From positions 1-63,711 of the forward strand of contig JAGLPV010000005.1 in assembly GCA_023137195.1 (NCBI GenBank): a stretch of DNA of 63,711 bases, given 5' to 3'. The notes beneath the pieces are model-generated. The model was not told the DNA's origin, did no database searches, and saw only the letters and a program-made list of their open reading frames with translations. How positions within the stretch are numbered: position 1 is the stretch's first letter; each line of letters starts with the position of its first letter. The DNA is from Candidatus Aenigmatarchaeota archaeon (GTDB lineage: Archaea > EX4484-52). Position numbers and translations under genes: made by a program. Of the stretch, positions 8,482-54,464 are shown in pieces.

Positions 8482-8696
8482 GACTTTTCTACATTCTTAC
8501 AAAAAATACGGAAAATTCTGTTCTTTACGCTTACGAGTATTTTCTGCATCCCTACGAAATTTACATGCAGAAAATAACCATGAAAATCGCTGGGCTTACA
8601 AGCAATACCGCGCTTTTCAAGGTGTTTCGGTGCTCACTGCGGAATTTGCTCTCCTTACAGGTTATACGGCAAATTCCTTTGTTCACTACCGAAACA
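8482..8696 (-). repeat. tRNA-trailer structured element, copy A (four GTA-N6-GTA hairpin modules)
   Basis: Starts at the base after the tRNA-Gly discriminator; near-identical to 43608-43772; hairpins at 8641-8677, 8582-8618, 8538-8576 and 8482-8518. Confidence 0.85.
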
Positions 8697-8767
8697 TGCA
8701 CTAGCCGGGAATCGAACCCGGATCGTAAGCTTGGGAAGCTTAAATTCTACCACTATACCACTAATGC
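8697..8767 (-). tRNA. tRNA-Gly(CCC)
   Basis: Acceptor GCATTAG/CTAGTGC+A, anticodon arm TAAGC-TTCCCAA-GCTTA, GGTTCGATTCC T-arm; no intron, CCA not encoded. Confidence 0.96.
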
Positions 8768-29963: not shown

Positions 29964-30051
29964 AAATCTCTCACAATATTGCCAGTTTTATCTCATCATT
30001 TTGCCAATTGTTTAAATTATTGTTTACTACTTTTTAGTAAATAATATTAAC

Positions 30052-30085
30052 TCTCACAAAACCATATGTTTTTTTAGTTACTACT
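30052..30085 (+). repeat. 34-bp inverted repeat, left copy
   Basis: TCTCACAAAACCATATGTTTTTTTAGTTACTACT; 29/34 identical to the reverse complement of 32026-32059. Confidence 0.75.
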
Positions 30086-30169
30086 TTTCAGTAAATAAAA
30101 TAAAACTCACAAAAATAGAAAATTTTATCAAATAGATATCTTTTTATATAGTAAAGTCCATATATCCGT

Positions 30170-30442
30170 ATGTGGTCTATGTTTGAGGCAGACGAGGATA
30201 AAAACATCAAATCCCGGAAGAAAAAAGAAAAAAAGATGAAACTGGAAATTCTTTTATTGATTGTATTGCTTATAGGCATAGCATACCTGGCAATAAACAT
30301 GGTAGAACCCAATAAAACCAAGAGCATAACAACGAGCATATTGATTGTTTTTTTCTTTGTACTATTCTTAATTGAAAGCCATTACTTTCATGTGCATTCA
30401 AAACACACAAAACACCTCACCAAAAAAGATAAATTTGATTAA
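30170..30442 (+). CDS. Small hypothetical membrane protein
   Basis: Two TM segments and a His-rich tail; the start may be ATG 30236. Confidence 0.45.
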   Translation: MWSMFEADEDKNIKSRKKKEKKMKLEILLLIVLLIGIAYLAINMVEPNKTKSITTSILIVFFFVLFLIESHYFHVHSKHTKHLTKKDKFD

Positions 30443-30504
30443 ATTGTAATGTTCTTTTTTACTACTAAAAAATAGAAAAAATAAGTCTCACAAAAGTAGG
30501 AAAA

Positions 30505-31014: not shown

Positions 31015-31120
31015 GCAATTATGAGATAAAATACTTTAAATATCTTCTATTTTTGCTCCATTGCGTATAATATACATTATACGCAAAACTTTATATAGTT
31101 TTAGTGCCTATTTAAGCCCT

Positions 31121-31969
31121 ATGGGTGGGGTACAGAGAGTAAATAGACCAAAAAACGAGCTTTTGGCAAAAATGCTCACTGAAATGAAACTCAGGGGCTT
31201 TACCGGCGAGACTTACAAGACATATCTTTTCAACACACAAAAATTTATTCTATGGTATAAAAAAGATCCAAAAACAGCAGAACTCGATGACATAAAAGAA
31301 TATCTTGCAGAATTAATTGATGATGGAAAATCATTCAAATCAATTGCTCTCATAAAGTCGGCAATTTTATTTTTGTACAATGAAGTCCTGGGAAAAGCAT
31401 ACAAAATAAAGACACCAAAAACAACAAAGTCTATTCCTGTAGTCCTGACCAAAACAGAAATAAAAAAAATCCTTGACTTTGAGAGCAACCACAGGAACAA
31501 AACAATAATCTGCTTTTTTTATTCTACAGGAATCCGTCTAAGCGAATTAATAAACATGAAATGGGACGATCTGGACATGAATGACAAAATTGCATGGGTT
31601 AGAGAAGGAAAAGGGAAAAAACACAGGATGATAATATTATCAGAAATATTAATTTCATACCTAAGAACCAGTTTAAGGGATAACAGAACACCAAAAGGAT
31701 ATGTCTTCAACGGAAAAACAAAAGATACAATCGCCCCCAGAACAGTGGAGTATATCATCACCAACGCAGCATTAAGGGCAGGAATCAGGAAAAGAGTGCA
31801 TGTACACACCATGAGGCACTCTTTTGCCACTCACTTGCTCGAAAACGGCACAGACATACGTAAAATACAGGAGCTTTTAGGGCATTCTAACCTTGCAACG
31901 ACCCAGATATACACAAGTGTCTCTAAATCCCAGTTAAAGGCAATTTCCAGTCCTATGGACGCATTATAG
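31121..31969 (+). CDS. Tyrosine recombinase, XerA/XerC-like
   Basis: SAM-like N-domain; catalytic set TGIR.SE, GKG.K, HT.RHSFATH, LGH, TTQIY; start uncertain (31061/31121/31172). Confidence 0.93.
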   Translation: MGGVQRVNRPKNELLAKMLTEMKLRGFTGETYKTYLFNTQKFILWYKKDPKTAELDDIKEYLAELIDDGKSFKSIALIKSAILFLYNEVLGKAYKIKTPKTTKSIPVVLTKTEIKKILDFESNHRNKTIICFFYSTGIRLSELINMKWDDLDMNDKIAWVREGKGKKHRMIILSEILISYLRTSLRDNRTPKGYVFNGKTKDTIAPRTVEYIITNAALRAGIRKRVHVHTMRHSFATHLLENGTDIRKIQELLGHSNLATTQIYTSVSKSQLKAISSPMDAL

Positions 31970-32025
31970 CCAAAAAAACAAGCAAAAAAACAGCAATTTG
32001 TGAGACATTTAATTATTCACTTTTT

Positions 32026-32059
32026 AGTAGTAACAAAAAAAACAGTATGTTTTGTGAGA
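32026..32059 (-). repeat. 34-bp inverted repeat, right copy
   Basis: Reverse complement TCTCACAAAACATACTGTTTTTTTTGTTACTACT. Confidence 0.75.
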
Positions 32060-32122
32060 TTTACAACTAAAAAGTAAAAAATAAGTATTTAATATTTATT
32101 GTCTATTTTTGAGTGTGATAAT

Positions 32123-43534: not shown

Positions 43535-43607
43535 GGGATGGTAGCTCAGTTGGCAGAGCGCTGGACTGAAGATCCAGGTGTCGCGTGTTCAAGTCACGCC
43601 CATCCCA
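43535..43607 (+). tRNA. tRNA-Phe(GAA)
   Basis: Acceptor GGGATGG/CCATCCC+A, anticodon arm CTGGA-CTGAAGA-TCCAG, TTCAAGT T-loop; no intron. Confidence 0.96.
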
Positions 43608-43772
43608 TGTTTCGGTAGTGAACAAAGGAATTTGCCCCTTAAGAGCAAATTCCGCAGTGAGCACCGAAACACCTTGAAAAGCGCGGTATTTAGCGTAAGC
43701 CCAGCGATTTTCATGGTGTTTTTCTGCACGTAATTTTCGTAAGACTGCAGAAAAATGTCGTAAGCGTAAGAA
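43608..43772 (+). repeat. tRNA-trailer structured element, copy B
   Basis: Starts at the base after the discriminator; same sequence as copy A apart from loop indel/substitutions and compensatory stem changes. Confidence 0.85.
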
Positions 43773-50702: not shown

Positions 50703-50949
50703 GGCAAGTAATGTGGCGTGATATAATCTCAAACGCAATTATATTACCCGTTATGCTAATTGCGTCTTCGAATATATTCACCCGCTCTTTGCGGTCGAAT
50801 ATACTAGCAAAATACATAAATGCTATCTAAATACCGATTATATTTTTGTATTATTTTCTGCTGTGAATAAAGTATAAGCAGAAAATAAGCTTAAAAGTAG
50901 TATTTTGCGTAGGGAAACTTTTATGATTATTTATGTGTTTTGCTATAAA
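50680..50949. repeat. Composite palindromic element, long copy (270 bp) with two nested inserts
   Basis: Same outer modules as 16962-17077, plus a 78-bp and a 76-bp two-hairpin insert. Confidence 0.8.
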
Positions 50950-52550: not shown

Positions 52551-53075
52551 TCATTTGCGTCTTAATGTAAATTCGCGTTCTATCAAATAATTTTTTATCA
52601 TGTTGTTGAGTTCAAGAATCATTTGTTTTTGGTTATCCCCCATACACCAGAGATTTACTTTCAATATCATGTAATCCGGGTTTGTAAGTTCAACAGTCCC
52701 GTGTCTTGCCTTATTTTTAAGCACAGTATACTTTCCCAGCATGGTTCTTGGAACATGAAAATAGCCCGGTTTTTCCTCAATTACAATCTCTTTTACCGCT
52801 CCTTTTCTTTCATGCCCTTCTTCTTTTGCAGGAATACCCTTATATTTTCTATCTGGTGTATTGTAGGTAGCATGGCGCTTTTTTACCACACCAAAAATAT
52901 CTGTTGAAGAGAGTTTTTTTTTCTGCTCCTTTACATAAAGGGAGTAACTGTAACTCGACATCTTGGTATCTTTGATTTTAAGCCTTCTCCGGCACCCGGG
53001 ACACAATTCTATATCTTTTCCCAGATCCCACATAAATTTTACATTACAGAAATTACACATCACTTTTATTTTCAT
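52551..53075 (-). CDS. Hypothetical protein with an N-terminal zinc ribbon
   Basis: CNFC...CPGC; lies directly upstream of rps8. Confidence 0.6.
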   Translation of the reverse strand: MKIKVMCNFCNVKFMWDLGKDIELCPGCRRRLKIKDTKMSSYSYSLYVKEQKKKLSSTDIFGVVKKRHATYNTPDRKYKGIPAKEEGHERKGAVKEIVIEEKPGYFHVPRTMLGKYTVLKNKARHGTVELTNPDYMILKVNLWCMGDNQKQMILELNNMIKNYLIEREFTLRRK

Positions 53076-53124
53076 ATTAAATAATCGTGATTAAATATAT
53101 AAATATGTATTTATTTTCCACTTA

Positions 53125-53353
53125 TATAGAAATTATGTAATTGGCGTATAATGATTTCTATACATTAAAAGTGATATTAATTGTAAGGCTCTTTTATTGT
53201 ATAGAAATTATGTAATTTGCGTATAATGATTTCTATACATTAAAAGTAGTATTAATTGTAAGGCTCTTTTATTGTTTTTTAATTGTTGTGCAAATTGAAG
53301 GGAAACGATTACAAAACATTAAAAGTAGTATTAATTGTAAGGCTCTTTTATTG
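53125..53353. repeat. Tandem array of palindromic modules X-Y-X-Y-Z-Y overlapping the trpS 3' end
   Basis: X 38 bp (53125, 53200); Y 37 bp (53163, 53238, 53317); Z 42 bp (53275). Confidence 0.9.
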
Positions 53354-54464
53354 AAATAAATTCATCTAATCTTGCCTTTGCCGATTGTCTTTTTTTCTGG
53401 TGCTCCTGGAGGAAATTATTGAGCTTTTCAATAAGTATTGCCTTTAACTCCCCCGAGAGCATCTTGCCTGATTTATAATCCTCATATATTGTTTTTAGTT
53501 TCTCATCATCCTCTTCAAGGAATGTAAGCCACTGGTAAGACACATCAATATCTGGGTTTCCTCCAAGATGGCGATGTTCCTCAAGCGTAGGCTGTCCTCC
53601 TGAAAAAGCATACTTATTAACTTTCTTCTTTACTGTTTTAGGGTCATCTGTAAGTGCAATATAAGAAGAGGGATCAGAAGAAGACATCTTGCCGCCCGAA
53701 AGCCCCGGGACAAATAAATGATAAGTTGAACTCAACTGGACAAATTTATATGATTTAAATCTCTTTGAAATATCACGGGCAAGCCTAAGGTGAGGATCCT
53801 GATCAATGCCTACTGGCACAACCACCGGCACAGCTCTACCTTCAAACTCCGGCAACTGTGCATGAAGCATGTCCGATGCCTGTAAAAGAGAAGAAACCAT
53901 CTTTCCGGGAGATATCTCTCCATACACTGCCTTAAACTCATTAAATGTAGCATGTCTTGCCAACAGATTCTGGAGTCTGTAATAAGCATTTGCTTTTGCA
54001 GGATTCTGCGAACGATTGCTCTGGAAATATATTTCGCAGTTTTTCGGCTTTAGCCCAAGCGCAATATAATTAGTAATGTATTCCTCTATAGCAATTTTTC
54101 TGCCTTCCTCAAGAGACTGCCCTCTTGCATTATAAGCTTCAATATCCGCAACAGCAATATATATTTTAGCTCCGAGACCCTGGTAGAAAATCATCTGTTT
54201 TGCAAGAATCATGTGCCCTATATGGAAATTTCCACTAGGCATAAGACCTGTCATCATTACAAAAGGCTTTTTATTCAAATATGCCTGTGTAATCCTCTCA
54301 AAATCCCTGTGGGCAAAAATTTTATTTCTCCTGAACAGTAAGTTTTTCATGAAGACCTCCGGCAGATTGGTTAGAGGAGTAAGACCAAATTTCTTTATCA
54401 TCTTGTCATAATCAATGTCTCCTTTAACATCCCACGGAGTTACTGTAAAATTGTCTTTTTTCAT
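53331..54464 (-). CDS. trpS: Tryptophan--tRNA ligase
   Basis: TPWDV, PSG.FHIGH, GIDQDPH.RLARD, KMSSS, AFSGG. Confidence 0.96.
   Translation of the reverse strand: MKKDNFTVTPWDVKGDIDYDKMIKKFGLTPLTNLPEVFMKNLLFRRNKIFAHRDFERITQAYLNKKPFVMMTGLMPSGNFHIGHMILAKQMIFYQGLGAKIYIAVADIEAYNARGQSLEEGRKIAIEEYITNYIALGLKPKNCEIYFQSNRSQNPAKANAYYRLQNLLARHATFNEFKAVYGEISPGKMVSSLLQASDMLHAQLPEFEGRAVPVVVPVGIDQDPHLRLARDISKRFKSYKFVQLSSTYHLFVPGLSGGKMSSSDPSSYIALTDDPKTVKKKVNKYAFSGGQPTLEEHRHLGGNPDIDVSYQWLTFLEEDDEKLKTIYEDYKSGKMLSGELKAILIEKLNNFLQEHQKKRQSAKARLDEFISIKEPYN

Follow-up and report, generated by a model that had tools for sequence, protein, structure and literature searches.

A CRISPR-like array of palindromic modules at the 3' end of trpS in an aenigmatarchaeal genome

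An array of hairpins where trpS ends

The window analysed here is a 63,711-nucleotide (nt) stretch of DNA from a Candidatus Aenigmatarchaeota archaeon, namely contig C45 of genome G000, which comprises 1.42 Mb on 57 contigs, has a G+C content of 35% and is 85% complete. Its minus strand carries trpS, the gene for a tryptophanyl-tRNA synthetase (TrpRS), and at the 3' end of this gene lies an array of palindromic modules that resembles a clustered regularly interspaced short palindromic repeat (CRISPR) locus, in that a palindromic constant unit alternates with others at a regular period. The modules follow the order X1(38)-Y1(37)-X2(38)-Y2(37)-Z(42)-Y3(37) (lengths in nt) over positions 53125 to 53353, 229 nt in all (Table 1). 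An earlier sequence-only reading had described this X-Y-X-Y-Z-Y geometry, and its module sizes, coordinates and 75-nt period were all confirmed by the sequence and by Tandem Repeats Finder, which reported a period of 75, 3.0 copies and 85% matches.

Y2 and Y3 are identical, Y1 differs from them at two adjacent bases, and the two copies of the doubled X+Y are 96% identical. With up to three mismatches allowed, the window held three matches to Y and two to X, against an expectation of 0.00 from 100 shuffles, which excludes chance. Each of X, Y and Z is predicted to fold as a hairpin, with plus- versus minus-strand energies of -8.6 versus -3.6, -5.2 versus -2.2 and -5.0 versus -1.0 kcal/mol for the three modules; the predicted fold of Y1 has -2.0 kcal/mol, versus -5.2 kcal/mol for Y2. 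X and Y share a loop of the form GTA-N6-GTA. The earlier statement that the units separating the Y copies are hairpins with this family loop was thus correct as to the hairpins and, for X, as to the loop, of which Z has only a degenerate form (GTG-N6-GAA).

Table 1. Features at the trpS locus (window coordinates) and filled and empty sites of two-hairpin units elsewhere in the genome (contig:position)
Feature	Position	Strand	Description
X1	53125..53162	+	38-nt hairpin with a stem of 12 bp and the loop GTAATTGGCGTA; serves unit 1 as its variable 5' hairpin
Y1	53163..53199	+	37-nt constant hairpin, degenerate; GA for AG at positions 11-12, inner stem weakened
X2	53200..53237	+	38-nt second X copy; one loop base unlike X1
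Y2	53238..53274	+	37-nt constant hairpin, CATTAAAAG-TAGTATTAATTGTAAGGCT-CTTTTATTG
Z	53275..53316	+	42-nt hairpin; 95% identical copy at C28:7652-7692; homologue in the G001 array
Y3	53317..53353	+	Exactly equal to Y2; reverse complement codes (S)IKEPYN and the TAA stop now used by trpS
trpS	53331..54464	-	Archaeal-type tryptophanyl-tRNA synthetase, 377 aa, PF00579; homology to relatives stops at about residue 370
Ancestral trpS stop	53122..53124	-	TAA (TTA on the plus strand), directly behind the array; TTR triplet 5' of X1; from the sister alignment
TATA-like box of downstream gene	53091..53103	-	TTTATATATTTAA; kept in the sister, left intact by the insertion
Downstream gene	52551..53075	-	174 aa, no Pfam match on record; syntenic in the sister
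V'+Y unit, 76 nt	Filled C15:944, C15:15636		In apex/loop of hairpin U; empty at C2:41301-41386, C45:1561-1614 and two variants
26-nt hairpin + Y unit, 63 nt	Filled C2:79296		Between hairpins W and U; empty at C8:12840-12907
W+Y unit, 76 nt	Filled C54:14576, C15:15735		Between hairpins T and U; empty at C8:22177-22261

The coding sequence of trpS runs into the array, as the sequence-only reading had proposed. The protein ends ...DEFISIKEPYN (LDEFISIKEPYN), its final seven codons and stop codon being encoded by the reverse complement of Y3. The identical 377-aa product was obtained from gene calls made independently in other assemblies.

A sister contig (L141; P0057, GCA_023139425.1) has the orthologous site without the array. 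It encodes a TrpRS that is 94% identical as a protein (87.5% for the trpS DNA), followed by the same downstream gene. The sister trpS ends ...SEFIVTD-TAA, and its spacer to the next gene measures 49 nt, versus 255 nt in the window. Nucleotide homology to the sister breaks off at window position 53355 and sets in again at 53105, and behind X1, in the direction of trpS, TAAGTGGAAAA aligns with TAATAGTGCAAAA of the sister, whose TAA is the trpS stop. On this alignment, the comparison shows the whole 229-nt array to lie between the last conserved codon (I370) and the old trpS stop, which survives behind it. Because the array sits immediately upstream of the ancestral TAA, the trpS reading frame now extends into Y3, on its reverse complement, and closes with a stop seven new codons later. 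The TTA next to X1 is the complement of the pre-existing stop, and the triplet is therefore flanking DNA and not part of the element. The trpS site is a clean before/after pair for one insertion, with the old stop still visible behind the insert, and the sister's site also bears out the earlier view of the array as a product of module addition; it is not an ancient fixed structure.

We compared TrpRS C termini in 14 genomes of the same order and 76 metagenomic relatives (66 to 82% identical). The tails after F[ILV] comprised 0 to ~14 residues, mostly 0 to 4, and SIKEPYN was absent from all of these proteins, so the C terminus of the window's TrpRS is not one that its orthologues share. A search with nhmmer found no Y in the trpS loci of 80 metagenomic relatives, and a strict Y pattern was absent from the same-order genomes. 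One relative (P0007, 79% identical) ends DEFISISVQ; its resemblance to DEFISI is probably coincidence, the codons being TCT ATT versus TCA ATA, and GTA ACG in the closer sister. The visible effect of the array is a tolerated seven-residue replacement of a naturally variable tail, and the array itself is probably selfish or neutral DNA.

The array was also compared among five other assemblies (four samples and one Logan run), which encode an identical 377-aa TrpRS and have zero differences over the array and its flanks. L140 and L138/L155 differ from the window by single-nucleotide polymorphisms that lie in unique sequence, no more than a few hundred bases away, at ~0.2% divergence. As a separate observation, the TrpRS of G003, a genome without Y, is 82% identical to that of the window, whereas the best match in the congener G001 (isolate CSMAG_1689, a bin that is 57% complete) is only 43% identical despite the presence of Y and the shared genus. 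The orthologue may be missing from this bin, or trpS may have a discordant history.

Two-hairpin units in the genome and its relatives

The genomes compared were 57 to 85% complete, and absence of a gene from them is no proof. A loose regular expression for Y gave 472 mostly spurious matches, and Y counts were taken from nhmmer instead. This search found ~20 full Y copies on 14 contigs of G000, together with a related sub-family; most are singletons, at ~15 loci besides the array, and Y is thus dispersed, as the sequence-only reading had expected. X occurs elsewhere in G000 at C39:63277 and C7:55001 (C numbers are contigs of this genome) and Z at C28:7652; the X family has four copies in G000 and seven in G001. 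Four Y copies lie at contig ends (C2, C37, C39 and C49), so that the family breaks assemblies and is undercounted. Self-comparison of G000 gave 164 short-repeat clusters of at least three copies. Their combined length is 21.3 kb (1.5% of the genome), and the window contains seven of them.

The strict Y pattern was present in 2 of 41 related genomes, G000 (16 copies) and G001 (6 copies). Among 185,579 species genomes it occurred in G001 only, besides four single chance matches, and the distribution of X matches that of Y. Since the copies inside G000 are 95 to 100% identical and the sister lacks the array, the family has been active after that split. G001 has a (partial Y)-X-Y-Z-Y array at a nonorthologous locus, between U32-peptidase-like and TsaA-like genes, and a near-identical X+Y pair at two unrelated loci (L038 and L042). 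Mosaic clusters occur in G000 at C54:14378-14726, C15:15636-15771 and C14:19936-20194, among others.

Y stands directly 3' of another hairpin, which we call N (26 to 42 nt; X, Z, V, V', W and others), in 20 of 20 cases. Conversely, all 11 X copies (four in G000 and seven in G001) stand directly 5' of a Y-type hairpin, and Y has many N partners. The N+Y units measure 63 to 79 nt, and the earlier treatment of the 75-nt X+Y as a real unit is upheld by the Y that follows every X. The further proposal that X+Y matches the 76- to 78-nt inserts at 50.7 to 50.9 kb in the window fared less evenly: size and two-hairpin layout agree, and the insert at ~50853-50928 (hairpin R plus a Y-like hairpin) is the same type of unit, but the sequence of the other insert is unrelated.

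Filled and empty sites were taken from split alignments between paralogous copies within G000 (Table 1). A filled site and its empty counterpart differ by one N+Y pair exactly. The junctions lie at hairpin boundaries or in a loop, with an ambiguity of at most 1 nt and no target duplication, and the ends of N+Y units are not inverted copies of one another, so that there are no terminal inverted repeats. As read from these alignments, N+Y pairs are shown to have been inserted whole, as polar units, at hairpin boundaries or in hairpin loops. The earlier suggestion that insertion copies a resident Y does not agree with these sites, at which the N+Y pair arrived together. A contig of a near-identical strain (L154, SAMN18200497) ends in a copy of the element at 50.7 kb, and this copy lacks the first 78-nt two-hairpin insert (GATATA/CTAGCAAAA; window 50734-50811). 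Its differences lie mostly in the repeat and it resembles the C43 and C39 paralogues too; the insert may vary in presence between strains, or the contig may have been joined wrongly during assembly.

The GTA-N6-GTA loop, on one strand, is common to X, Y and most other hairpin families. It stood at the apex of a hairpin with a stem of at least 9 bp in 38 of 624 occurrences, whereas seven control motifs did so in 0 to 9 of 327 to 1422. In X stems 97.5% of cells are paired, with two compensatory pairs, and 14 of 14 one-sided changes yield G.U on the element strand. In stems of the Y super-family 93.7% of cells are paired, with three compensatory pairs (including AAAA/UUUU to GGAA/UUCC) and 12 G.U cells. 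In the Y stem, position 10 is a conserved bulge and one T.T pair is mismatched, and stems and loop centre vary while the GTA triplets are kept. Because a G.U pair on the element strand would be a C.A mismatch on the opposite one, the conserved form is a hairpin of one strand, as single-stranded DNA or RNA.

A TTR triplet stands 5' of X in 11 of 11 cases from two species (CTTA once, ATTG five times, GTTA once, ATTA once and GTTG three times), and TTG stands 5' of all three Z units. X and Z together thus have TTR in 14 of 14 cases, partly owing to a preceding Y; every Y has the 3' end ...TTATTG.

Several other repeats were seen beside these units. A second CRISPR-like array lies at C7:6840-7036 (period 75, 2.2 copies), with three Y-like hairpins (GATTAAAAGTAGAA...CCCTTTTATGA) in the pattern Y'-N'-Y'-N'-Y', its two N' hairpins being alike only at their ends (TTATTTT...AAAATCA). 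At C14:19936-20061 an identical 42-nt hairpin stands on either side of a Y (N-Y-N), a 1.5-copy duplication with a period of 79 and a phase unlike that of the trpS array. In G001, the X+Y units at L038 and L042 lie 2 to 3 nt from the start codon of the neighbouring gene (CAT on the element strand), so that any promoter of those genes would need to be inside the element; the reverse complement of X has TATA-like runs ~25 to 30 nt upstream of the ATG.

Origin of the array

We hold with moderate confidence that three polar two-hairpin units without coding capacity (X+Y, X+Y and Z+Y), stacked head to tail, make up the array, and that they come from a family of small mobile hairpin repeats confined to this lineage. 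In each of them a variable 5' hairpin N would be joined to Y as the constant 3' hairpin, and most N-type and Y hairpins have GTA-N6-GTA at the apex on the same strand. The first unit would have landed at the trpS stop, antisense to the gene, with the TTA complement as its TTR target; an antisense insertion at a TAA stop would push the gene into the repeat. Because the 3' end of Y would recreate TTR, the next unit may have landed behind the resident Y, which would give the N-Y-N-Y appearance. Such regeneration of the target would explain X2 behind Y1, Z behind Y2, the X-Y-Z-Y array of G001 and the array at C7:6840-7036. Movement may proceed through a single-stranded, strand-specific hairpin intermediate, comparable to the "peel-and-paste" of IS200/IS605 elements and their transposase-less derivatives; the compensatory and one-strand G.U pairing and the shared loop point to a single-stranded intermediate. 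The near-identity of the three Y copies may be due to local duplication or gene conversion.

Several results weigh against this reading. The sister has 9 nt (GTAACGGAT) where the window has 1 nt and the array, and either the insertion removed a few bases or the ancestral tail was different. The 5' flanks of the other N hairpins are GTA(T), GACA and ATAT and not TTR, so that a single target rule fails unless N sets the target; a parallel for a target that depends on N exists among IS200/IS605 elements, in that the left end of IS608 specifies its target. A strict genome-wide count of stem changes had no excess of G.T (3 G.T versus 4 A.C), so that the strand asymmetry is seen in the X and Y families only. 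All three array copies of Y share a loop variant (TTAATT, GG) that is absent from the X+Y pairs at C39 and C7, and the only Y elsewhere within 1 nt of the array version is at C26. Because of this array-specific loop, the independent arrival of ready-made units is insufficient, and local copying or conversion would be needed. Local duplication of X+Y, conversion between Y copies 75 to 79 nt apart and template switching through the Y arms are all possibilities, and the phase-shifted N-Y-N at C14 indicates that local duplication of a period-sized segment does happen. Furthermore, copy number did not vary: a check of related assemblies, which the sequence-only reading had named first among its tests, found the array invariant in all five, a comparison of shallow population depth only. 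Of the three observations that had been named as speaking against that reading, this is the only one that was made.

No mover was found in this 85%-complete genome, which also counts against mobile units. The Y1/IS200 transposase family (PF01797) had no match in G000. TnpB (PF07282) had none above the cut-off in G000 or G001, the sub-threshold match being to a zinc ribbon inside a 3026-residue open frame. A weak PF01797 match in G001 was rejected as chance, since it lies inside a membrane transporter protein. Within the genus, a real Y1 sequence was seen only in G003, a genome that has neither X nor Y: a degraded IS200-type fragment at G003:C64:4904-5074 (L133), covering positions 65 to 120 of the Pfam model, with one in-frame TAG. 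Tyrosine recombinases number one or two full-length genes per genome, with weak fragments, regardless of Y. The recombinase gene of the window (31061-31969) has the look of an ordinary Xer gene and adjoins no array, and a link between such genes and the units was rejected since their counts do not follow Y.

In a possible though doubtful alternative, the modules would spread by host replication and repair alone, without a dedicated transposase. Template switching, ectopic conversion and unequal crossing-over would act through the Y arms (CATTAAAAG and CTCTTTTATTG), so that the N of a Y-N-Y donor ends between two resident Y copies. This would account for the (near-)identical Y copies of the array with their array-specific loop, X elsewhere being joined to other Y loops, and for the independent assortment of N and Y, X occurring with at least five Y variants. 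The 1.5-copy, phase-shifted N-Y-N duplication at C14:19936-20061 and junctions at hairpin boundaries without target duplication agree with it too, as does the failure to find a transposase, and donors of the form Y-Z-Y do exist, Z standing between two Y-type ends (the 5' Y truncated) at C28 and in G001. First arrival at sites without Y (the trpS stop, the U loop and the W/U junction) is nevertheless hard to achieve by homology, the TTR flank of all 11 X copies includes six or more flanks that are not Y, and near-identical X+Y pairs are found at the unrelated loci L038 and L042 of G001. The sequence-only reading had offered either insertion of a module with duplication of Y, by analogy with spacer acquisition, or unequal recombination; the analogy is not supported, and unequal recombination or local conversion is still a live explanation for the X+Y doubling and the identical Y copies. 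The reading of the array as a true though degenerate CRISPR locus is effectively refuted. Only the alternating geometry and the palindromic repeat speak for it, while Cas1 (PF01867), the gene product whose search had been suggested, gave no match in G000 at 85% completeness and did give matches in control genomes. The period is 75 to 79 nt, and the 38- to 42-nt "spacers" are duplicated within the array, repeated elsewhere (X at C39 and C7, Z at C28) and hairpins themselves; the repeat is single at many loci, and the array overlaps a housekeeping gene.

Two further alternatives assign the array a function or another kind of enzyme. It would be very unlikely, on present evidence, for the array to be a functional noncoding RNA locus. 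Its transcript would be a copy of the plus strand, antisense to trpS and perhaps started at the nearby TATA box, with the hairpins as processing or protein-binding sites in a cas-less analogue of a CRISPR RNA precursor. All three modules do have their more stable fold on the plus strand, where one-sided stem changes are G.U, a TATA-like box lies ~20 to 30 nt upstream of X1, and related hairpins stand in sense orientation directly behind tRNA genes (8534-8677 and 43713-43761). However, single-stranded DNA hairpins tolerate G.T wobble as well, the modules behave like inserted DNA, and most congeners lack the units, as does the orthologous site of the sister. No Rfam match at the array reached the gathering score: in the window only two tRNAs did, and a permissive scan over the array gave far-sub-threshold E values of 1.8 to 3.8 only. 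Hairpin orientation is moreover unbiased with respect to transcription units, with 22 sense versus 26 antisense at gene 3' ends (5 versus 4 for Y loci), and an mRNA 3' untranslated region element or terminator was rejected on the same ground. Still less probable are integron-like, gene-less mini-cassettes in which Y is an attC-like folded single-strand site for a tyrosine recombinase and N the content. The content-site-content-site layout, insertion without target duplication and the strand-specific hairpin with its bulged base at position 10 and T.T mismatch recall such cassettes, as do GTA triplets conserved while stems and loop centre vary; G000 has two tyrosine recombinase genes, at C1:6913 and window 31061-31969. 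Against this, Y lacks RYYYAAC and GTTRRRY cores, its ends being CATTAAAAG and CTTTTATTG, and is 37 nt long, whereas attC sites measure 57 to 141 nt. G002 and G003, which are without Y, have one and two full-length recombinases (G003 also a fragment), the window's recombinase is of the ordinary Xer type and not beside any array, and neither an attI-like platform nor a long array was found. A diversity-generating retroelement (VR/TR at a gene end) was likewise set aside: the repeat is 37 nt, Y1 and Y2 differ in a way that is not specific to adenine, and trpS is a housekeeping gene for a synthetase.

A bolder form of the mobile-unit explanation, which we put forward as speculative and rather unlikely, is that X, Y, Z and their relatives belong to an undescribed archaeal class of mobile single-strand modules recognised by shape and the GTA-N6-GTA loop and not by stem sequence, and are moved as N+Y pairs by an enzyme unrelated to Y1 or TnpB, assembling themselves into CRISPR-like arrays because Y restores the target. 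If true, it would give a view of how regular repeat-spacer architecture could arise from selfish hairpins. Polar units with a shared loop and strand-specific pairing, and with no recognised transposase, offer a tractable case for distinguishing a new hairpin-specific DNA enzyme from transposase-free spread by template switching.

Relation to known repeat families and further observations

The closest match is with transposase-free repeats of Haloquadratum walsbyi. Its palindrome-associated transposable elements (PATEs), which derive from IS605-type transposons and include a 52-bp terminal-only form of two fused palindromes, and its SMR-A repeats insert preferentially in the palindromes of other elements and form conglomerates, and they have been mobile despite a near-absence of intact IS200-type transposases (PMC3119063). 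Like PATEs, the present units are archaeal, too short to code and without terminal inverted repeats or target duplication, and they have a palindrome near each end. They differ in that no IS605-type transposon, TnpA or TnpB was detected here, the 5' hairpin is exchangeable and the 3' one constant, the loop is GTA-N6-GTA, the stacks are regular and head to tail, and the sequences, rich in A+T, have no relation to those of the haloarchaea. PATEs insert 3' of a fixed target oligonucleotide of 4 to 6 nt; here TTR precedes X and Z (14 of 14, partly via the preceding Y), and other N hairpins have the flanks GTA(T), GACA and ATAT.

Repetitive extragenic palindromes (REPs) and the bacterial interspersed mosaic elements (BIMEs) that they form occur in enterobacteria and pseudomonads, are mobilised by Y1 transposases called RAYTs and carry a terminal GTAG or CGTC tag (PMC3733652, which cites PMC3333891). 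They resemble the present modules as imperfect palindromes of 20 to 40 nt outside genes (37 to 42 nt here) with many copies, single, paired or mosaic, and are recognised as single-stranded hairpins, often near gene 3' ends. BIME-2 arises by tandem amplification of a two-palindrome unit. In contrast to REPs and BIMEs, no RAYT was found here, the stems are AT-rich and not GC-rich, the host is archaeal, the pairs are direct and not inverted, and GTAG lies inside the Y stem at positions 9 to 12 (AAAAGTAGTA) and not at an end, X and Z being without it. By analogy, the array would work like a PATE or a BIME without being filed as either.

Other families are more distant. Unlike miniature inverted-repeat transposable elements, N+Y units have neither terminal inverted repeats nor a target-site duplication (ambiguity of at most 1 nt). 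BOX elements of Streptococcus pneumoniae, boxA-boxB(n)-boxC, are non-coding, have a variable number of tandem internal modules and form stable predicted hairpins; they are not known to have a transposase. They share modularity, lack of coding capacity and hairpins with the present units, but their order A-B-C is fixed, whereas here N is interchangeable and only Y is constant. Rickettsia palindromic elements insert in frame in protein-coding genes and are read through. The trpS array likewise is a palindromic repeat tolerated within the coding sequence of an essential gene, although here the gene was parted from its stop and the repeat supplies seven codons and a new one. CRISPR arrays differ from this one by their cas genes, none of which were found here, by unique spacers, by a repeat that is not dispersed singly and by a leader.

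The modules adjoin gene 3' ends more often than 5' ends (48 versus 23), and such a preference is common among selfish repeats, whose surviving copies are those at harmless sites. Mobile DNA is usually considered scarce in small, reduced DPANN genomes. In this one, ~1.5% of the sequence consists of tiny hairpin modules, which have moved after the split from the sister, lie nested within each other and are able to rewrite the ends of essential genes. Such arrays can be mistaken for CRISPR; they break assemblies and create lineage-specific protein tails.

Some further repeats were recorded in passing. The GTA-N6-GTA hairpins at window 8534-8677 and 43713-43761 lie in sense orientation just 3' of tRNA genes (8697-8767 on the minus strand and 43535-43607 on the plus strand). 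Boxes TTACTACTTTTTAGTAAA and TCTCACAAAA occur at window 29969-30500 and 31990-32075, round a shikimate-kinase-like gene and the Xer-type recombinase gene; GTAGTAA, the complement of the TTACTAC box, occurs in Y as well, but no further similarity was seen. A 107-nt tandem repeat at C26:33238-33474 (2.2 copies, 99% identical) has a unit that starts like a tRNA (CTCTTGTAGCTCAGTAGGTCGAG...). Finally, a 37-nt unit, ATGTGCGGAAAATCTGAGAGTCATCGGTCTCGAACAG, stands in tandem 2.3 to 3.5 times at C14:36348-36438, C17:31439-31523 and C3:5251-5382, two of these sites being intergenic.

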